A model generated the notes under the pieces. That model was not told the DNA's origin and did no database searches. It was given only the letters and a program-made list of their open reading frames with translations. A program made the translations under genes and the position numbers. A stretch of 26,472 nt of DNA, taken from the NCBI GenBank assembly GCA_947085795.1, contig CAMTXY010000220.1, positions 1 to 26,472 of the forward strand, read 5' to 3'. Below are positions 8,847-24,573 of this stretch, piece by piece (the first letter of the stretch is position 1; every line of letters begins with the position of its first letter). The stretch comes from an uncultured Actinomycetes bacterium (GTDB lineage: Bacteria > Actinomycetota > Coriobacteriia > Anaerosomatales > UBA912).

Positions 8847-8922
8847 GCCGACGTAGCTCAGCTGGTAGAGCAACGCACTCGTAATGCGTAGGTCAGCGGT
8901 TCGAATCCGCTCGTCGGCTCCA
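8847..8922 (+). tRNA. tRNA-Thr (anticodon CGT)
   Basis: 76-nt cloverleaf: acceptor GCCGACG/CGTCGGC, D-arm GCTC/GAGC, anticodon arm ACGCA-CTCGTAA-TGCGT, T-arm AGCGG-TTCGAAT-CCGCT, encoded CCA. Confidence 0.98.
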
Positions 8923-16000: not shown

Positions 16001-17287
16001 ATGCGCACCGTGAAAGTCGGCCTCATCGGCCTGGGAACCGTAGGCGCCGGAGTCGTGGAGATTTTCAACCGCCACCGGCAAGACTTCGTCCGCCGGGCCG
16101 GCGTCGACATCGAGCTGACCCGCTTCGCCGACCGCGAGGAGTCGCGCGCGGCCGAACTGGGCCTGCCCGCAGGCTCGTTCACCACTGATGCGTTCGACAT
16201 CATCAGCGATCCGGACGTCGACGTCGTCATCGAGCTCATCGGCGGTACCGGTGTCGCCCGCGAGATCGTGCTGGCGGCGCTCGCCGAAGGCAAGTCGGTC
16301 GTAACGGCCAACAAGGCGCTCATGGCCACGCATGGTCAGGAGGTGATGGATGCGGCGGCACGCCAGGGCGTCGACGTCATGTTCGAAGCCAGCGTCGGCG
16401 GCGGGATTCCGATCATCAGCCCGCTCAAGCACTGTCTCGTCTCCAACCAGATCGGGACGGTGATGGGCATCGTCAACGGCACGACCAACTACATGCTCAC
16501 CCGTATGGCCGCAGACGGCCTGGACTACGGCACCGCACTCGCCGAGGCACAGGAGCGCGGGTTCGCCGAGGCCGACCCGACCGCCGATGTCGACGGCCAC
16601 GACGCTGCGGCGAAGATCGCGATCCTCGCCAGCATCGCGTTCAATTCGCGCATCACGATCGACCAGGTGCCTGCCGAGGGCATCCGATCGCTCTCGCCAG
16701 CCGACATCGCGTACGCCCGCGAGATGGGCTACACCATCAAGCTGCTCGCCATCGCACGTCGCATCGATGGCGCGGTCGACATTCGCGTGCACCCCACGAT
16801 GATCCCGGTCGCCCACCCGCTTGCCGGCGTCAACGGCGTGTACAACGCGATCTACGTCATCGGCGACGCGGTCGGCGAGACGATGTTCTTCGGCGAGGGG
16901 GCCGGTTCGTTGCCGGCGGCCAGTGCGGTGGTCGGCGACGTGATCGAGGTGGCGCGCCACATCCGAAGCGGGTGCCTGAACCTGGTCGGCTGCACGTGCA
17001 ACGAGCAGCTGCCGGTCCGCGACATCGCCGACCTGACCTCGAGCTACTACGTGCGCCTGCGCGTCGCGGACAAGCCGGGCGTGCTCGCCGCGGTCGCCGG
17101 CGTGTTCGGCGCTCACGGCGTGTCGATCGGCTCGGTCATCCAGAAGACCGCCGATGAGACCGGTGCCGAGATCGTCTACGTCACCCATCGCGCCTCGGAG
17201 CGGGCGGTGCGCTTCGCGCTCGCCGAGATCGAGGCGCTCGACGTCGTGGCGACGCTCGGGACGGTCCTGCGCGTCGAGGATCTCTAG
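16001..17287 (+). CDS. hom: Homoserine dehydrogenase with C-terminal ACT domain
   Basis: GLIGLGTVG, VVTANKAL, FEASVGGGIPII, GIVNGTTNY, AEADPTADVDGHDAAAK, GAGSLPAASAV, ACT domain DKPGVLA. Confidence 0.96.
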   Translation: MRTVKVGLIGLGTVGAGVVEIFNRHRQDFVRRAGVDIELTRFADREESRAAELGLPAGSFTTDAFDIISDPDVDVVIELIGGTGVAREIVLAALAEGKSVVTANKALMATHGQEVMDAAARQGVDVMFEASVGGGIPIISPLKHCLVSNQIGTVMGIVNGTTNYMLTRMAADGLDYGTALAEAQERGFAEADPTADVDGHDAAAKIAILASIAFNSRITIDQVPAEGIRSLSPADIAYAREMGYTIKLLAIARRIDGAVDIRVHPTMIPVAHPLAGVNGVYNAIYVIGDAVGETMFFGEGAGSLPAASAVVGDVIEVARHIRSGCLNLVGCTCNEQLPVRDIADLTSSYYVRLRVADKPGVLAAVAGVFGAHGVSIGSVIQKTADETGAEIVYVTHRASERAVRFALAEIEALDVVATLGTVLRVEDL

Positions 17288-17292
17288 GGCGC

Positions 17293-18210
17293 ATGGCTGA
17301 CGTCACGATACGCGTGCCGGCGAGCGCGGCGAACCTCGGGCCGGGCTACGACGCCTTCGGGCTTGCGCTCGGGCTGTACAACACGTTTCGTGCTCAGCCC
17401 GCCGACACGTGGAGAGTGGAGGTGCGCGGCGAAGGGGAGGGACGTTTCGCCCGCGACGGTCGCAACCAGGTAGCCCGCGCGATGGCGCGTGCGTTCGCCG
17501 AGATCGACGGCGCGCATGCGGCTGCGCGCGTGGTTTGCGACAACGAGATCCCCACGAGTCGCGGGCTCGGTTCCTCGGCGGCGGCGATCGTGGGCGGCGT
17601 CGTGCTCGCCGACGCTCTGTGCGGCGGTGTCCTCGGCCGCGACCGGCTCTTCGGGATCGCGGCCGAGATGGAGGGTCATCCCGACAACGTGGCTGCGGCG
17701 CTCTTTGGCGGTTTCACCATCGGCTGGTCCGGCGAGGGCGCCCCCGGGGTCGCGGCTGTGTCGCCCGCAGACGGACTCGCCGCCGTTGTCGTCGTCGCGG
17801 ACGAATCTCTGCCGACCCGGACTTCGCGCGGTCTGCTGCCGAGGCAGGTGCCGCATGCCGACGCCGCGTTCAACGCCGGTCGCTCGGGTCTGCTCGCCGC
17901 AGGCATCGCGCTCGGCCGAGGAGACCTCATCGCCGCCGGACTGCATGACCGGCTCCACGAACCGTACCGCGTATCGGCTGTGCCGGACCTGGCCGAGGTA
18001 GCCCGGGCGCTCGTCGAGGCTGGAGCGCTCGGTGCTGTGCTCTCCGGTGCGGGGCCGACCGTGATCGGGCTCGTGAGCGCGGACGACGATGACGCGGCTT
18101 TCGAGGCGGCGACCCGGATCGCCGGCCGAGTCGGCGGACTCGACCCGGGGCGTCGGACCCCGCAGGCGCTGCGCATCGACCGGACGGGAGCCGCGGTCCT
18201 TACGGGCTGA
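17293..18210 (+). CDS. thrB: Homoserine kinase
   Basis: VPASAANLGPGYD, GHMP motif PTSRGLGSSAAA, EGHPDNVAAA, DRLHEPYR, SGAGPT. Confidence 0.95.
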   Translation: MADVTIRVPASAANLGPGYDAFGLALGLYNTFRAQPADTWRVEVRGEGEGRFARDGRNQVARAMARAFAEIDGAHAAARVVCDNEIPTSRGLGSSAAAIVGGVVLADALCGGVLGRDRLFGIAAEMEGHPDNVAAALFGGFTIGWSGEGAPGVAAVSPADGLAAVVVVADESLPTRTSRGLLPRQVPHADAAFNAGRSGLLAAGIALGRGDLIAAGLHDRLHEPYRVSAVPDLAEVARALVEAGALGAVLSGAGPTVIGLVSADDDDAAFEAATRIAGRVGGLDPGRRTPQALRIDRTGAAVLTG

Positions 18211-18320
18211 GTGCGCGAGCTGAGGGCGTGTATTGACCGCGCCCGCCTCCGTCGGGGAATATAGACTGTACCGCACCCGCCCGTCACCTCGTGCGACGGC
18301 CCTATCCGCGGAGGAACCCC

Positions 18321-19385
18321 ATGGATCAACCAGGCCCCGAGAGCCGTCCCGGCATCGAGCCGCCCGTCTCACAAGGATACGCCGTCCCGACGGCACCCCC
18401 CGCGACCGCACCTTCGTCCGTCGCGCCCCCCGCGAACGCGCCGGTGCAGCCCGCGCCGCGCACTTCCTCGGCGTGGAAATGGTTCATCGGCGTAGTGGCC
18501 GTGCTGCTCATCGGAGCGATGGCCTTCTGTGGCCTGGCCGTGCTCGCCGTCGCCCCGATCTCAGGGCCGTCGTTCTCGATCGACGAGAACATCGCGCTCA
18601 TCCACGTCGACGGCGTGATCGCCGGCACGGGAAGCGAGTTCGACGGCGTCATCACGCCCGAAGCGATAATCGACAAGCTCGGCAAGGCGCTCGCCGACCC
18701 GACTGTCAAGGCGATTCTGCTGCGCATCGATTCGCCGGGTGGGACGGTGGCCGCCTCGCAGGAGATCGCCACCGAGATCGCTCGTGCCGCCGAGGAGAAG
18801 CCGGTCGTCGCGAGCGTCGGCGATGTCGCGGCGAGCGGCGGATACATGATCGCCTCGCAGTGCGACGAGATCGTCGCGAACCCGACCTCGGCGGTCGGCA
18901 GCATCGGCGTCATCACCCAGATTCCCAACGTCGCCGGCCTGCTCGAGAAGCTCGGTATCGAGTTCACCGTGTTCACCGCAGGCGATCACAAAGACGCCGG
19001 CAGCCCGTTCCGTTCGATGACCGCGACCGAGACCGCGCTCATCCAGACCGAGGTCGACGTCGCCTACGATGAGTTCATCCGCATCGTCGCCGAGGGCCGC
19101 GACCTGCCTGAGGACAAAGTGCGCGAGATGGCGACGGGCTTCGCCTGGTCGGCGCTCGTGGCCAAGGAGATGGGGCTCGTCGACACGCTGGGCACCTACA
19201 ACGACGCGGTGGACCGCGCCGCCGAACTCGGCGGGATCGAGGGTGAACCGGGCATCGTGACCTACGACGAATACGACTACGGCACGTTCCTGCGCTTCTT
19301 ACTCGGCGCGTCGGCGCGCCTCGACCGGCTTGAGGTGCTCACCCGTACGCTGACGGGACCTGCCGCACCGGCGCTGCCGAGATAG
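18321..19385 (+). CDS. sppA: Signal peptide peptidase SppA (S49, short form)
   Basis: ATG at 18321 with GGAGGA RBS. Pro-rich N-terminus, TM segment, RIDSPGG, AASGGYMIA, GSIGVI, KDAGSPFR. Confidence 0.93.
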   Translation: MDQPGPESRPGIEPPVSQGYAVPTAPPATAPSSVAPPANAPVQPAPRTSSAWKWFIGVVAVLLIGAMAFCGLAVLAVAPISGPSFSIDENIALIHVDGVIAGTGSEFDGVITPEAIIDKLGKALADPTVKAILLRIDSPGGTVAASQEIATEIARAAEEKPVVASVGDVAASGGYMIASQCDEIVANPTSAVGSIGVITQIPNVAGLLEKLGIEFTVFTAGDHKDAGSPFRSMTATETALIQTEVDVAYDEFIRIVAEGRDLPEDKVREMATGFAWSALVAKEMGLVDTLGTYNDAVDRAAELGGIEGEPGIVTYDEYDYGTFLRFLLGASARLDRLEVLTRTLTGPAAPALPR

Positions 19386-19420: not shown

Positions 19421-20257
19421 GTGACCACAGAGGCTCTCATCCGCATCGCACACATCTCCGACCTGCACTGCGGGTCGCAATACCACATCCCCTCGCTGGC
19501 CACTCGCGTCATCGACGAGCTCAACGAACTCAAGCCCGACATGGTGGTGGTGACCGGCGACCTGACCGACATGGGGTTCCGCCAGGAGTTCAAGCAGGCT
19601 CATCGGCTGCTCTCGCGCCTCCAGTGTCAGGAGCGCATGGTACTCCTCGGCAATCACGACGCGCGCAACGTCGGCGACGAGCATTTCAGCGAGATGTTCG
19701 GCACGCGCAGTAAGGTGCTGCTGCACGGGTGCGTGCGGATCCTCGGAATCGATTCGAGCGAACCGGACCTCGACGCCGGACGCGTGGGCCGTAACCGCTA
19801 CAAGTGGATCGAGGAGCGCTTCAGCGACCCTGACGAGTTCAAGGTGCTCGCGATGCACCACCACCTCGTGCCGGTGCCGGGCACCGGTCGCGAGCGCAAC
19901 GTCGTCTACGACGCAGGCGACATGCTGCGCGTGCTCTCGCATTGCGGTGCCGACCTCGTGTTGTGCGGCCACAAGCACGTCCCGAACGTCTGGCGTCTCG
20001 AGGATATGCTCATCGTCAACGCCGGCACCGCGTGCTCGCACCGCCTGCGCGGGCGCGTGCGGCCCTGCTACAACATCATCGAGGTCATCGGCGGTTCGCG
20101 CGTGCGCGTGCTGCTCAAGGAGCCATACGTCGATCCCGAGGTCGTCGCCGACTACCACGAGCTCCACAAGCGCTACTGCAGCTGGCGTCCGAAGAGCGAG
20201 CCGGCCGACGCCGAGATCGTGCCCACTCCTGAATCTGCCGAGGAGACCGCCTCATGA
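19421..20257 (+). CDS. Calcineurin-like metallophosphoesterase (CpdA/Icc-like)
   Basis: All five metal-binding motifs: HISDLH, TGDLT, GNHD, MHHH, GHKH. Confidence 0.92.
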   Translation: MTTEALIRIAHISDLHCGSQYHIPSLATRVIDELNELKPDMVVVTGDLTDMGFRQEFKQAHRLLSRLQCQERMVLLGNHDARNVGDEHFSEMFGTRSKVLLHGCVRILGIDSSEPDLDAGRVGRNRYKWIEERFSDPDEFKVLAMHHHLVPVPGTGRERNVVYDAGDMLRVLSHCGADLVLCGHKHVPNVWRLEDMLIVNAGTACSHRLRGRVRPCYNIIEVIGGSRVRVLLKEPYVDPEVVADYHELHKRYCSWRPKSEPADAEIVPTPESAEETAS

Positions 20258-21600
20258 CCCGTATCGTCGCGCTCATCGACGGGGAGCACTACCCGCCTGT
20301 CGTCCGCTTCGCGCTCGAGAGTCTCGCGCGCGAACACGAAGTGGCCGCCGCGGCGTTCATCGGCGGGACCGAGAAGGTCGACCTCGAGAGGGGGATGGAC
20401 ACCTACGGCGTACCGGTCGTCACCGCCGCCACGCCCGAAGACGCGGTCCGTGAGGTGATAGTCCGCTATGAGCCTGTCACCGTGATCGACCTCTCCGACG
20501 AGCCGGTAGTCTCGAGCGCCGACCGTTTCCGGCTCGCCGGTATCGCGCTGTCATGCGGCGTGGAGTACCGCGGCGCCGACTTCACGTTCACGCCGCCGCG
20601 CGCGCAGCTGGCCACCAGCACGCCGACGCTCGGACTCATCGGTACCGGCAAGCGAGTGGGCAAGACCGCCGTTTCAGGCTACGTCGCGCGCGAGCTGACC
20701 GCTGCTGGGCGTGATATCTGCGTTCTGGCGATGGGCCGAGGCGGCCCCTCCGAACCAGAGATAATCCACGGAGAGAAGGTCAGGCTGACCACGCCCGACC
20801 TGCTCGAACTCGCCCGTCAGGGAAAGCATGCGAGCAGCGACAACTACGAGGACGCGGTCATGAGTCGCGTGACCACCGTGGGCTGTCGGCGCTGCGGCGG
20901 AGGCATGGCGGGCGAGACGTTCTTCTCCAACGTCCCGGAGGGCGCGCGCCTCGCCGACACGCTCGGCAAGGAGCTCATCGTGCTCGAGGGTTCCGGGGCC
21001 GCGATCCCGCCCGTGCACGCCGACGCGAGCATCCTCGTGGTGGGTGCCGGTCGCGGTCTGGACTACGTGCGCGGGTATTTCGGGCCTTATCGCCTCGGTC
21101 TGGCCGATCTCATCGTGATCGCCACTGCCGAGGAACCCGTCGCATCGCCTGACGACATCGCCTCCATCCGCAAGGCCGTGGCCGAACTGGCGCCCGGCGT
21201 GCCGTGTCTGGCCACGACGTTCCGCCCGTGCCCGGTCGAACCGGTGGAAGGGGCCAAGGTGTTCTTCGCCACCACCGCGCCCGCACAGGTGCTGCCCAAG
21301 CTAGTCGAGCACCTCGAACGCGACCACGGGTGCGAGGTGGTGGGTTCGAGCGCGAACCTGTCGAACCGCGCCAAGCTGCGCGAGGACATGCGCGCGGCGC
21401 AGGGCCGTTACGACCTGCTGCTCACCGAGCTCAAGGCGGCCGCGATCGACGTCGTGGCGGCGGCTGGCGAGGAGAGCGGCGTCCCGACGGTTCTCTGTGA
21501 CAACGTGCCCGTGCCGCTCGACGACAGTGCCGACCTGTCTTCGGCGGTGCTGGCGGCGGCGCATATCGCGCTCGAGCGCGGGTCGGCGAGAGGGGTGTGA
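20254..21600 (+). CDS. cpgS: Cyclic 2,3-diphosphoglycerate synthetase
   Basis: ALIDGEHYPPVV, P-loop GTGKRVGKTAVS, AMGRGGPSEPE, SDNYEDA, GCRRCGGGMAG, LEGSGAAIPP, LLTELKAAAIDVV. Directly upstream of a 2-phosphoglycerate kinase. Confidence 0.9.
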   Translation: MTRIVALIDGEHYPPVVRFALESLAREHEVAAAAFIGGTEKVDLERGMDTYGVPVVTAATPEDAVREVIVRYEPVTVIDLSDEPVVSSADRFRLAGIALSCGVEYRGADFTFTPPRAQLATSTPTLGLIGTGKRVGKTAVSGYVARELTAAGRDICVLAMGRGGPSEPEIIHGEKVRLTTPDLLELARQGKHASSDNYEDAVMSRVTTVGCRRCGGGMAGETFFSNVPEGARLADTLGKELIVLEGSGAAIPPVHADASILVVGAGRGLDYVRGYFGPYRLGLADLIVIATAEEPVASPDDIASIRKAVAELAPGVPCLATTFRPCPVEPVEGAKVFFATTAPAQVLPKLVEHLERDHGCEVVGSSANLSNRAKLREDMRAAQGRYDLLLTELKAAAIDVVAAAGEESGVPTVLCDNVPVPLDDSADLSSAVLAAAHIALERGSARGV

Positions 21601-21604
21601 TCCG

Positions 21605-22528
21605 GTGAAGCCGCACCCCAAGACGATCATCCTGTCCGACAAGCGTCACGGTCTGCCGTTCTCCAAGGGGCTACTCGCCCAGTCGTTCATGGCCACGGGC
21701 CTCGGTCCGGGGCGTGCGTACGAGATCGCCCAGGCGATCCAGGACGATCTGCGAGACAACGACGAGCTGTCGATCACGATCAAGCGGCTGAGGATGCTTG
21801 CGCAGGAGTACCTCGAGCGGATGGCTGGCGAGCAGTACGCGGTACGCTATCTGCGACTTCACGAGGTCTCGAAACTCGACAAGCCGCTCATCGTAATGCT
21901 CGGCGGTACGACCGGCGTGGGCAAGTCGACCATCGCAACGGAGGTGGCCCACCGTCTCGGAATCACGCGCATCGTGTCGACGGATTCCATTAGGGAGGTC
22001 ATGCGTGGTATCTTCACAAGAGACCTCATGCCCGCGATCCACGAGAGCGCGTTCAACGCATGGCAGGGTCTGCGAGTCCCGGTGCCGCACGGCACCGACC
22101 CCGTGATCGTCGGTTTCCGCGAGCAGACCGCCGTGGTGACGACCGGAGTGCAAGCGCTGATCGACCGCTCGGTGCTCGAGGGGGACAGCCTCGTTCTGGA
22201 AGGCATCCACCTCGTGCCCGGATACATCGAGCCGCAGCACTTCAAGAACGCGCGGGTCGCGCAACTTGTCATCGCCGTGGAAGACGAAGACGCTCATCGC
22301 AGCCACTTCTACATCCGAGAGGTCCAGACCGACGGGATGCGCCCGTTCGAGCGCTACCGCACGAACTTCGGCAACATCCGCTTACTCGGTCATTACATAG
22401 AGGATCTGGCCCGCGAACACGGGACCCCCGTGCTCGTGAGTCACCAGCTCGACCTGACCGTGTCCGACGTGCTCGAACGTATCGTGAATTCGGCCATCGA
22501 AGACGAGTGCGACGCGCACCGTGAGTAG
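21605..22528 (+). CDS. pgk2: 2-phosphoglycerate kinase with N-terminal ATP-cone
   Basis: GTG at 21605. ATP-cone PFSKGLLAQSFMATG, P-loop LGGTTGVGKSTIATEVAHRLGI, STDSIREVMR, IHESAF, LEGIHLVPG. Confidence 0.9.
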   Translation: MKPHPKTIILSDKRHGLPFSKGLLAQSFMATGLGPGRAYEIAQAIQDDLRDNDELSITIKRLRMLAQEYLERMAGEQYAVRYLRLHEVSKLDKPLIVMLGGTTGVGKSTIATEVAHRLGITRIVSTDSIREVMRGIFTRDLMPAIHESAFNAWQGLRVPVPHGTDPVIVGFREQTAVVTTGVQALIDRSVLEGDSLVLEGIHLVPGYIEPQHFKNARVAQLVIAVEDEDAHRSHFYIREVQTDGMRPFERYRTNFGNIRLLGHYIEDLAREHGTPVLVSHQLDLTVSDVLERIVNSAIEDECDAHRE

Positions 22529-22561: not shown

Positions 22562-23224
22562 GTGAAGTTCTTCTTAGACACCGCCAATCTCGACGAGATT
22601 CGCGAAGCCGCGAGTTGGGGCGTGCTCTCGGGCGTGACCACCAACCCGACGCTCTATGCCCGCGAAGGCGGTAGACTCGCCGACTTCCACGACCACATCG
22701 TGCGGATCTGCGAGATCGCCGGCGGCCCCGTCTCGGCCGAGACCGTCTCGCTGTCGCGCGACGAGATCGTCGCCGAGGGCATGGAGCTCGCGGCACTGCA
22801 TCCCGACGTCGTCGTCAAGGTGCCGACCATGCCCGAGGGCCTGGCTGCGACCCGCGCTCTTGCCGAGAAGGGTGTCAAGGTCAACATGACGTTGTGTTTC
22901 ACGGTGCCGCAGGCGCTGCTCGCCGCGCGTTCGGGTGCCGCGTATGTCTCGCCGTTCATCGGTCGGTTCGACGACATCTCCGAGGACGGTTCGGAGCATC
23001 TCGCGAACGTGGTGCACGCGTTGAACAACTACGATTTCGGTCACACGGTCGAAGTGATCGCGGCATCGGTGCGCCATCCCGGGCACGTGCTTCAGGCCGC
23101 TCTCATCGGCGCCGATATCGCAACTGTGCCGATGGCCACGCTTGAGAAGTGCATCAAGCACCCCCTCACTGACCGGGGTCTCGAATCGTTCCTCGCCGAC
23201 TGGGAGAAGGTCGAGAACTCATGA
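22562..23224 (+). CDS. tal: Transaldolase (TalC/FSA family)
   Basis: MKFFLDTAN, GVTTNPTL, VKVP, VNMTLCF. Glu in VSAETVS and Phe in SPFIGR fit transaldolase rather than FSA. Confidence 0.9.
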   Translation: MKFFLDTANLDEIREAASWGVLSGVTTNPTLYAREGGRLADFHDHIVRICEIAGGPVSAETVSLSRDEIVAEGMELAALHPDVVVKVPTMPEGLAATRALAEKGVKVNMTLCFTVPQALLAARSGAAYVSPFIGRFDDISEDGSEHLANVVHALNNYDFGHTVEVIAASVRHPGHVLQAALIGADIATVPMATLEKCIKHPLTDRGLESFLADWEKVENS

Positions 23225-24573
23225 GCGCCAGACCCCGTAAACGCGGCCGTCGCGGTAGTAGCGGACAGCCGCAGGAGCCAAGACCCTCCGTCACCAGACC
23301 CGAACTCGAAGCTAAGACGGTAGCCGAGCTCAAGGTCATAGCTACCGAGCTGTCGCTCGACATCAAAGTGTTGAAGAAGAAGGACGAGCTCATCGACGCT
23401 GTGCTTGAGGCCAAGGTCAAGTCCGAGGGTTTCATCGAGATCAGCGGCATCCTCGATATCCTACCCGAAGGCTACGGCTTCATCCGCACGAGCGGATACC
23501 TGCCTGGCGACCGGGACGTGTACTGCTCGATGTCGCAGATCCGCAAGTTCGACCTGCGCCGCGGCGACATGCTCATCGGCCAGGTCCGCCCGCCCAAGGA
23601 CAACGAGAAGTACTCGGCGCTCCAGCGCGTCGATTCGGTCAACAGCGTGCCGACCGAACAGGCGCGCGGCCGCAAGCGCTTCGGCGATCTCACACCGGTC
23701 TACCCTGACGAACGCCTGCGTCTGGAGCATGGAGCCGAGACCATCACGGCCCGCGTCATGGATCTCGTCGCGCCAATCGGCAAGGGCCAGCGCGGACTGA
23801 TCGTCTCGCCGCCCAGAGCCGGCAAGACCACCGTGCTCAAGGACATCGCCGCGTCGATCACGGCGAACAGCCCCGAGGTCTACCTCATGTGCCTGCTCGT
23901 GGACGAGCGGCCTGAGGAAGTCACCGATATGGAGCGCTCGATTCATGGAGAGGTCGTCTCCTCGACGTTGGACATGCCCAGCGAGAACCACATCGCCGTG
24001 GCCGAGCTGGTGATGGAACGCGCCAAGCGTCTCGTGGAGTCCGGCTTCGACGTCTTGATCCTGCTCGACTCGATCACTCGTCTCGCGCGCGCGTACAACC
24101 TCGCCACACCGGCGTCGGGCCGCATCCTGTCCGGCGGTGTCGACTCGACCGCGCTCTACCCGCCCAAGAAGTTCTTCGGCGCGGCGCGCAACATCGAGAA
24201 CGGCGGCTCGCTCACCATTCTGGCGACTGCGCTTGTCGACACCGGCTCGAAGATGGACGAGGTCATCTTCGAGGAGTTCAAGGGTACCGGCAACATGGAG
24301 CTGCGCCTCGACCGTTCGATGGCCGACCGCCGCATCTTCCCGGCGATCGACGTTATCACGTCGGGCACGCGCAAAGAGGAACTGCTGCTCGAGCCGGTCG
24401 AGGCGCCGTTCGTGTGGGGTCTGCGCCGCATCCTGCACGGTGTGGACTCGGCCGAGCGCGCCATGGACATGCTCATCAAGGGCCTCAGGCAGACGAAAAG
24501 CAACCAGGAGTTCCTCTCCAAGATGGCCAAACGCGCCGATGAGAAGCGCCACACCAACGGCATCGACCTGTGA
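23221..24573 (+). CDS. rho: Transcription termination factor Rho
   Basis: GILDILPEGYGFIR, APIGKGQRGLIVSPPRAGKT, LVDERPEEVTD, LDSITRLARAYN, FEEFKGTGNME. ATGA overlap with tal. Confidence 0.98.
   Translation: MSARPRKRGRRGSSGQPQEPRPSVTRPELEAKTVAELKVIATELSLDIKVLKKKDELIDAVLEAKVKSEGFIEISGILDILPEGYGFIRTSGYLPGDRDVYCSMSQIRKFDLRRGDMLIGQVRPPKDNEKYSALQRVDSVNSVPTEQARGRKRFGDLTPVYPDERLRLEHGAETITARVMDLVAPIGKGQRGLIVSPPRAGKTTVLKDIAASITANSPEVYLMCLLVDERPEEVTDMERSIHGEVVSSTLDMPSENHIAVAELVMERAKRLVESGFDVLILLDSITRLARAYNLATPASGRILSGGVDSTALYPPKKFFGAARNIENGGSLTILATALVDTGSKMDEVIFEEFKGTGNMELRLDRSMADRRIFPAIDVITSGTRKEELLLEPVEAPFVWGLRRILHGVDSAERAMDMLIKGLRQTKSNQEFLSKMAKRADEKRHTNGIDL

Follow-up and report, generated by a model that had tools for sequence, protein, structure and literature searches.

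Cyclic 2,3-diphosphoglycerate (cDPG) has been described as exclusive to hyperthermophilic methanogens, and it was reported from Methanobacterium/Methanothermobacter-type and Methanopyrus methanogens, the particular genomes sampled in the present study not being among them (PMC10690619). Structures of the cDPG synthetase (cDPGS) of Methanothermus fervidus are available for the apo enzyme (8ORK) and for the complex with ADP, Mg and 2,3-diphosphoglycerate (2,3-DPG) (8ORU). In this enzyme K145 and R146, plus E45 and K46 in trans from the other subunit, are the ligands of 2,3-DPG, and T150 and D208 are ligands of Mg (PMC10690619). The reaction of the M. fervidus enzyme is reversible (PMC1224877). 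A cDPG hydrolase activity is known from Methanothermobacter thermautotrophicus; it is membrane-bound and is inhibited by K+ and phosphate (PMC1224877). No gene for this activity is named in that paper or in the other literature examined. An earlier first-pass annotation of the DNA studied here had stated that no chemical demonstration of cDPG in bacteria is known to it, and indeed no report of cDPG in any bacterium was found in the searchable literature. On the other hand, NCBI and JGI attach the label '2,3-diphosphoglycerate synthetase' to these genes in many bacterial MAGs. The module described below is a known, already machine-annotated gene set in Actinomycetota, from which production of cDPG by bacteria is predicted.

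The window, that is the whole stretch of DNA analysed, is 26,472 nucleotides long and comes from an uncultured actinobacterium of the class Coriobacteriia. The genes that concern us are the following.

19421..20257, + strand, calcineurin-like metallophosphoesterase (278 aa, GTG start; Pfam Metallophos, E 7.7e-20)
20254..21600, + strand, cpgS, cyclic 2,3-diphosphoglycerate synthetase homologue (448 aa, ATG start; M. fervidus cDPGS, 8ORU/8ORK, E 2e-129)
21605..22528, + strand, pgk2, 2-phosphoglycerate kinase (2PGK) homologue (307 aa, GTG start; NCBIfam PRK04220, E 5.7e-90)
22562..23224, + strand, fsa/talC-type fructose-6-phosphate aldolase or transaldolase (220 aa; TIGR00875, E 4.9e-76)
23221..24573, + strand, rho, a conserved gene that bounds the array on its downstream side (Pfam Rho_RNA_bind, E 1.7e-30; also ATP-synt_ab)

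Our data point to a native, vertically inherited three-gene module for the synthesis and turnover of cDPG in this Coriobacteriia-type actinobacterium, a reading to which we give a probability of about 0.7 on the strength of sequence comparison. The metallophosphoesterase is part of one unit with cpgS and pgk2. Its stop codon overlaps the start of cpgS in an ATGA, and a Shine-Dalgarno-like GAGGAG run lies 5' of cpgS at 20240-20245. The TGA stop of cpgS at 21598-21600 is separated by 4 nt (tccg) from the GTG of pgk2 at 21605, and a second Shine-Dalgarno-like run, GAGAGGGG, is found 9 nt upstream of that GTG. The start at 21605 was preferred to 21497, the position of the mechanically called ORF start, because the alignments of orthologues begin at 21605. 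A promoter and terminator scan gave 0 terminator-like sites from hom to rho and was otherwise without useful result; an Rfam search of the window returned one tRNA only, which lies outside the module. Given the overlap, the short gap and the lack of a terminator-like site, the three genes are probably co-transcribed. The sequencing runs in which the locus was traced are DNA metagenomes, with no RNA run among them. The first-pass annotation had proposed a pathway of two adjacent genes, cpgS and pgk2, with a 4-nt gap and intact P-loops. Both ORFs were found as it described them, and the P-loops are G130-T-G-K-R-V-G-K137-T138 in CpgS and GGTTGVGKST (residues 100-109) in 2PGK. Thus both enzymes are present, intact and linked, and what that proposal left out is the conserved phosphoesterase. 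The fsa product scores 254.9 against TIGR00875, above the cut-off of 245.95. It is treated here as a conserved downstream neighbour, a context gene for which pathway membership is not claimed.

CpgS was identified by its match to the PDB because the search of Pfam and NCBIfam with this protein gave no matching model; the precomputed family label for its bacterial homologues is PF27272. By phmmer, residues 3-440 align with residues 5-452 of 8ORU/8ORK (E 2e-129). The match is full-length, including the unique N-terminal domain, and identity to the characterised M. fervidus enzyme is about 46%. Ligand residues were mapped onto the solved structure (PMC10690619), leaving out P335, whose placement is ambiguous, and conservation was followed in two alignments of 49 sequences (A1) and 12 sequences (A2). 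E40, K41, K133, R134, K137 and T138 of the window protein correspond to E45, K46, K145, R146, K149 and T150 of the archaeal enzyme, and D196, E293, T341, E392 and K394 to D208, E305, T353, E404 and K406. Most of the mapped residues are invariant in A1 and A2. The Walker A residues K137 and T138 are invariant in the 49 sequences of A1, as are K133 and R134, which bind 2,3-DPG, and the Mg ligand D196 is nearly so. E40 and K41, the counterparts of the partner-subunit pair of M. fervidus, are invariant in A2, and the adenosine and phosphate ligands E293, T341, E392 and K394 are conserved. As judged from these alignments, every mapped residue with which the solved archaeal enzyme binds ATP, Mg and 2,3-DPG is kept in the window CpgS.

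The 2PGK matches PRK04220 over residues 7-299 of 307 with 301.8 bits, the curated cut-off being 343 (NCBIfam), and PRK12337 with 325.9 bits against a cut-off of 603. In the family search proposed in the first-pass annotation, 2PGK thus matched PRK04220 below the cut-off, and CpgS was identified through the PDB and not through a model. In a one-directional search the best matches of 2PGK in five of five methanogen genomes covered residues ~11-300 at 36-39% identity, and a shorter methanogen paralogue scored much lower. By sequence, the window kinase corresponds to archaeal 2PGK over its full length. In an alignment of 28 rows (23 bacterial and 5 archaeal) the methanogen orthologues match it from one end to the other, and 35 columns are invariant. 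The layout is an ATP-cone-like N-terminus (~residues 1-90) followed by a P-loop kinase domain. The label of ATP-cone, which the kinase had been given earlier, is weak for the window protein alone (PF03477, E 0.011) and better founded for the family, as 22 of the 28 aligned orthologues match PF03477 (best E 1.5e-12). The bacterial and archaeal enzymes differ at the catalytic loop because the archaeal Walker A lacks the lysine; the loop reads GVGKST in all 23 bacterial rows and GVG[ST]S[ST] in all 5 archaeal rows.

The phosphoesterase carries all the metal-binding motifs (DLH, GD, GNHD, HHH and GHKH). The nearest solved structures are GpdQ and Rv0805 (E ~1e-10), and orthologues were found in each of the five methanogens tested, at 41-49% identity. 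It is a candidate for the cDPG hydrolase.

The genes are widespread. Of 41 genomes from the order to which the window belongs, 37 carry CpgS, and a sample of 301 Actinomycetota genomes contained CpgS in 176, 2PGK in 174 and the metallophosphoesterase in 174. The tallies of the three by family match one another, and the same families are at zero for all three. Both enzymes of the cDPG route are encoded together in one genome and are co-inherited. Related loci were searched for with A2. Among 48 non-archaeal loci the phosphoesterase is directly upstream of cpgS in 39 and pgk2 is directly downstream in 39; the order phosphoesterase-cpgS-pgk2 is seen in 39 of the 48, in Coriobacteriia, Aquicultor, Thermoleophilia and Acidimicrobiia. 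The gene fsa follows pgk2 in most loci of Coriobacteriia, Aquicultor and Thermoleophilia, and a class II FBPase gene (glpX) takes its place in one Rubrobacteraceae locus. A neighbouring fsa or glpX fits with the link to gluconeogenesis in PMC1224877. Downstream of the module rho is found in nearly all actinobacterial loci. In methanogens the phosphoesterase, cpgS and pgk2 are scattered.

The GC content of the module equals that of its flanks, and in the CpgS tree the window protein is nested in a Coriobacteriia clade with 100% support; the module is therefore considered native. On these observations and the order-wide presence of cpgS, a recent transfer from methanogens was rejected. The comparison with archaeal enzymes, which the first-pass annotation had suggested, placed the bacterial CpgS in a clade separate from that of Methanobacteriota, so that its description of the pathway as archaeal-type is not supported. 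The rarity that it implied is likewise at odds with 176 carriers among 301 sampled Actinomycetota genomes and with the existing annotation of many bacterial MAGs.

In the proposed pathway, 2PGK would use ATP to phosphorylate 2-phosphoglycerate (2-PG) to 2,3-DPG, and CpgS would spend a second ATP to join both phosphates into the cyclic pyrophosphate of cDPG. The co-translated metallophosphoesterase may then reopen or dephosphorylate cDPG, or its precursor 2,3-DPG, and its products would bring carbon and phosphate back to lower glycolysis and gluconeogenesis. Entry into the pathway is probably tied to the adenylate pool through the ATP-cone of 2PGK. The first-pass annotation had considered cDPG as a stress solute, a store or a signal. 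Metagenomes of peat, groundwater, soil and sediment are the source of this lineage and its relatives, and the module is thus likely to serve as a reserve of phosphate, carbon or energy, or as a modest anionic solute, rather than in protection against heat.

Another interpretation concerns the end product. The physiologically relevant compound that the module forms and degrades could be 2,3-DPG and not cDPG. The kinase and the phosphoesterase, which could be a 2,3-DPG phosphatase, would then constitute a shunt or regulator from 2-PG through 2,3-DPG to 3-PG (or 2-PG), with CpgS in a minor, a reverse (ATP-yielding) or some other role. In its favour, the distribution of the phosphoesterase follows that of 2PGK no less closely than that of CpgS. 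In the phylum sample of Methanobacteriota 112 of 121 genomes carry CpgS, so the archaeal control offers few CpgS-negative genomes; three of the five examined have both the phosphoesterase and 2PGK. Conversely, of four genomes of Bacillota or Chloroflexota that have a CpgS homologue, all four are devoid of both. As the phosphoesterase also accompanies 2PGK in genomes in which no CpgS was detected, its strict identification with the cDPG hydrolase is weakened, and the reversibility of M. fervidus cDPGS would also suit an ATP-yielding role. However, almost every actinobacterial genome with 2PGK has retained an intact cpgS next to it, and the 2,3-DPG ligands of CpgS are invariant, which makes a module without cDPG unlikely.

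In a second alternative the homology would indicate the enzyme family and not the same substrate. Kinase and synthetase could have as their substrate another, though related, phosphorylated acid and form a different cyclic or linear pyrophosphate. The score of 2PGK under the curated cut-off and the difference between bacterial and archaeal Walker A are compatible with this, as are the distance of CpgS from the characterised enzyme and the other substrates of relatives of 2PGK, such as mevalonate-3-phosphate 5-kinase (PRK12339) and plant LPA1. We nevertheless give it a slim chance, for all mapped 2,3-DPG contacts of the solved complex are conserved and methanogen genomes, too, possess all three genes. 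The last alternative takes the CpgS homologue for an ArcE-type arginine synthetase, an enzyme that interconverts arginine and citrulline with ADP/ATP. ArcE (TK2200), known to us here by its description in PMC11032458, is a distant relative of cDPGS that occurs across bacteria, Actinomycetota included. In the same paper cDPGS homologues serve as outgroup, and their similarity to ArcE is described as low. Over its whole length the window protein matches cDPGS, and it keeps the ligands of 2,3-DPG; its operon contains 2PGK and not arcB or arcC. On homology, ligand residues and context this identification was rejected as extremely improbable.

Over half of the Actinomycetota genomes sampled across the phylum, mostly non-thermophiles, have the genes for cDPG synthesis whole and linked in an operon, while reviews and the structural paper of 2023 still treat the compound as exclusive to hyperthermophilic methanogens. 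Production of cDPG by bacteria, if real, would call for a revision of its assumed role in heat protection, towards storage of phosphate, carbon or energy, or towards signalling. The linked phosphoesterase offers a concrete candidate for the step of cDPG degradation, for which the literature examined names no gene. A broader and speculative view, which we hold to be possible but on the doubtful side, is that the three-enzyme cycle of cDPG (or 2,3-DPG) could be ancient and almost universal in those classes of Actinomycetota that branch early and are mostly mesophilic. There it would act as an ATP-gated buffer of phosphate and energy and not as a thermoprotectant, the phosphoesterase would be the gene of the cDPG-degrading activity, and cDPG would be a common, overlooked bacterial metabolite.

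Among known systems, cDPGS of M. fervidus shares with the window CpgS the N-terminal dimerisation/substrate domain and the P-loop core, as well as the Walker A GTGKRxGKT, the Mg-ligand Asp, the Lys/Arg pair for 2,3-DPG, the trans-subunit Glu-Lys and the adenosine ligands. The window protein differs in belonging to a lineage of non-thermal habitats and in sharing an operon with 2PGK and the phosphoesterase; in the archaeon cpgS is a solitary gene. ArcE of Thermococcus kodakarensis belongs to the same P-loop superfamily as cDPGS but is distant from it, and it departs from the window CpgS in its low similarity, its different reaction and its arcB/arcC context in place of 2PGK (PMC11032458). Archaeal 2PGK (PRK04220; COG2074) and the window kinase both combine an ATP-cone-like N-terminus with a P-loop kinase; they are set apart by an identity of 36-39%, the sub-cut-off score and the canonical GVGKST Walker A of the window protein. 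GpdQ of Enterobacter aerogenes and Rv0805 of Mycobacterium tuberculosis, class III phosphodiesterases, have the binuclear metallophosphoesterase fold and motifs in common with the window phosphoesterase, but the similarity is remote and their substrates are glycerophosphodiesters and cyclic nucleotides. The cDPG hydrolase of M. thermautotrophicus is membrane-bound, whereas inspection of the sequence by eye revealed no obvious hydrophobic stretch in the window phosphoesterase. What likens the latter to the Methanothermobacter hydrolase is that it is the sole hydrolase-type gene travelling with cpgS and pgk2.

The CpgS homologue of the window (448 aa) aligns with the cyclic 2,3-diphosphoglycerate (cDPG) synthetase, cDPGS, of M. 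fervidus (PDB 8ORU, 8ORK) over residues 3-440 with an E value of 2e-129. The ligand residues of the complex with ADP, Mg and the cDPG precursor 2,3-diphosphoglycerate (2,3-DPG) (PMC10690619) were mapped through this alignment. It was found that E45, K46, K145, R146, K149, T150, D208, E305, T353, E404 and K406 of the M. fervidus enzyme correspond to E40, K41, K133, R134, K137, T138, D196, E293, T341, E392 and K394 of window CpgS, respectively; P335 had no unambiguous counterpart in this mapping. In an alignment of 49 family representatives K133, R134, K137, T138, E392 and K394 are invariant, and D196 and K41 nearly so. A third solved chain, PDB 9sxb_A (436 aa), named cyclic 2,3-diphosphoglycerate synthetase, matches CpgS at E 5e-113. 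The arginine synthetase ArcE is a distant relative of cDPGS which catalyses a different reaction, the similarity being termed low (PMC11032458). An ArcE-like function is opposed by the full-length cDPGS match, the kept 2,3-DPG ligands and the 2-phosphoglycerate kinase (2PGK) neighbour.

The 2PGK homologue (307 aa) matches NCBIfam PRK04220 (2-phosphoglycerate kinase) over nearly its full length at E 5.7e-90, with a score of 301.8 bits, below the curated cut-off of 343. In each of five methanogen genomes the best match extends over the entire protein with an identity of 36-39%, whereas a shorter paralogue scores far lower. The ATP-cone model matches the N-terminal 90 residues of the window protein weakly (E 0.011); it is matched by 22 of 28 aligned orthologues, at best with E 1.5e-12.

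The first-pass annotation had placed cpgS and pgk2 next to each other with a 4-nt gap, and this is borne out, coordinates included, by their open reading frames. Between 16.0 and 24.6 kb every gene lies on the + strand in tight packing:

16001-17287, +, hom
17293-18210, +, thrB
18291-19385, +, SppA-type peptidase gene
19421-20257, +, calcineurin-like metallophosphoesterase gene
20254-21600, +, cpgS
21605-22528, +, pgk2
22562-23224, +, fsa/talC-type aldolase gene
23221-24573, +, rho

The start of cpgS overlaps the phosphoesterase stop in an ATGA at 20254-20257, pgk2 begins with GTG 4 nt past the cpgS stop, and Shine-Dalgarno-like runs stand 8-9 nt 5' of both starts. A scan of the whole stretch gave no terminator-like sites between hom and rho. 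The GC content of the three-gene module (phosphoesterase, cpgS, pgk2) is 0.67-0.68, the same as that of its flanks. It should be noted that thrB follows hom directly (16001-18210) with no thrC between them, that the SppA-type peptidase gene between thrB and the module occurs in Coriobacteriia loci only, and that a tRNA gene at 8847-8919 is the sole Rfam match in the window. The source genome bin has 1.48 Mb in 334 contigs, is an estimated ~80% complete and contains the window as contig CAMTXY010000220.1; the nearest relatives are MAG records named 'Coriobacteriia bacterium' or 'Actinomycetota bacterium'.

Where the flank of a non-archaeal locus was long enough, the phosphoesterase gene is directly upstream of cpgS in 39 of 48 cases, and pgk2 is directly downstream in 39 of 48. 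Rubrobacter MAGs have phosphoesterase-cpgS without an adjacent pgk2; the Rubrobacter-type loci L090, L083 and L085 have no pgk2 between cpgS and rho, and in L090 (6376-7479), the sole one checked for this, a class II FBPase gene (glpX) occupies that interval. The 2PGK match in G574, a genome with a Rubrobacter-type locus, is split over two frames. In four loci of close relatives of the window (L004, L008, L013, L019) the phosphoesterase gene is absent from its usual place, and sppA adjoins cpgS directly.

A CpgS homologue was found in 37 of 41 genomes of the window's own order and in none of the sampled genomes of other orders of the class (families f26-f32). The first-pass annotation had read the gene pair as an archaeal-type cDPG route in a bacterium. 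This interpretation is supported in part: the sequence evidence for such a putative route in the window is strong, but the implied rarity does not hold, as CpgS occurs in 176 of 301 genomes of a phylum-wide Actinomycetota sample. In the same sample 2PGK was found in 174 and the phosphoesterase (E <= 1e-30) in 174, and the family-by-family pattern is alike for all three, the same families being fully positive and the same families zero. The sample includes four unpublished genomes (G169, G213, G250, G280), all carrying the three genes; without them the counts are 172, 170 and 170 of 297 for CpgS, 2PGK and phosphoesterase. In family f43 the 2PGK is divergent, its matches being markedly weaker than in the rest of the phylum. 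The module is present in MAGs named as Coriobacteriia, Candidatus Aquicultor, Thermoleophilia and Acidimicrobiia, and the sources of module-bearing and Rubrobacter MAGs include peat (palsa), groundwater and soil surveys.

The CpgS family forms ~222 clusters at 50% identity (E <= 1e-30) and extends to Bipolaricaulota, Cloacimonadota, Eremiobacterota, Bacillota, Chloroflexota and several archaeal groups. For the comparison with archaeal CpgS proposed earlier, 88 sequences were placed in a quick maximum-likelihood tree. The 37 Methanobacteriota rows fall together in a single clade (97% SH-aLRT), and window CpgS lies apart from them, inside a Coriobacteriia clade (support 100%); Rubrobacter, Thermoleophilia and Aquicultor are each recovered as a group with 100%. 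Recent import from methanogens is opposed by this topology, which has the pattern of old, largely vertical inheritance within Actinomycetota; the tree is unrooted and therefore gives no direction of transfer.

The CpgS homologue of a clade from Bacillota and Chloroflexota is encoded with a GntR-family regulator on one side and a 2-aminoethylphosphonate-type ABC transporter (PhnS2/PhnU2-like) on the other, as in L067:4041-9140 and in the cpgS-bearing loci L052, L058 and L060. No 2PGK and no phosphoesterase orthologue was found in these genomes, and another substrate is therefore conceivable; this branch may act on a different, perhaps imported, compound.

The window phosphoesterase has a complete set of binuclear metal motifs; among solved structures GpdQ and Rv0805 come closest to it (E ~1e-10). 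Orthologues with 41-49% identity occur in all five methanogens tested. Among 121 Methanobacteriota genomes the phosphoesterase was found in 109 and CpgS in 112; 105 have both, seven CpgS only, four phosphoesterase only and five neither. Many methanogen genomes (G450, G458, G479 and others) carry 2-3 phosphoesterase paralogues, each ~40-49% identical to the window protein. Three of five CpgS-negative archaeal genomes have both phosphoesterase and 2PGK, and neither was found in four Bacillota/Chloroflexota genomes with a CpgS homologue; by these counts the phosphoesterase is tied to 2PGK no less closely than to CpgS. The enzyme may hydrolyse cDPG or, alternatively, dephosphorylate 2,3-DPG. The cDPG pathway has been linked to gluconeogenesis (PMC1224877), and the fsa and glpX neighbours are consistent with such a link.

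Unlike in the non-archaeal loci, the phosphoesterase gene is directly upstream of cpgS in 0 of 34 Methanobacteriota loci and pgk2 directly downstream in 0 of 32. The Walker A motif of 2PGK (residues 100-109 of the window protein and of the alignment) reads GVGKST in all 23 bacterial rows, whereas the five methanogen rows have GVG[ST]S[ST], without the lysine. The cDPG hydrolase of Methanothermobacter is membrane-bound and inhibited by K+ and phosphate (PMC1224877), whereas no obvious hydrophobic stretch was seen on inspecting the window phosphoesterase. In the literature that could be searched, neither cDPG nor a characterised pathway for it was found to be reported from a bacterium. PMC3505630 counts only weakly against a bulk-solute role in its subject, because its HPAEC method was targeted at other compounds. 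Bacterial CpgS proteins are already labelled '2,3-diphosphoglycerate synthetase' by NCBI and JGI, and the window module is a further instance of an already machine-annotated kind. cDPG has been stated to be exclusive to hyperthermophilic methanogens (PMC10690619); here, a three-gene module that includes a candidate for the degradation step is conserved among predominantly non-thermophilic Actinomycetota, and this pattern poses a worthwhile and easily testable question.
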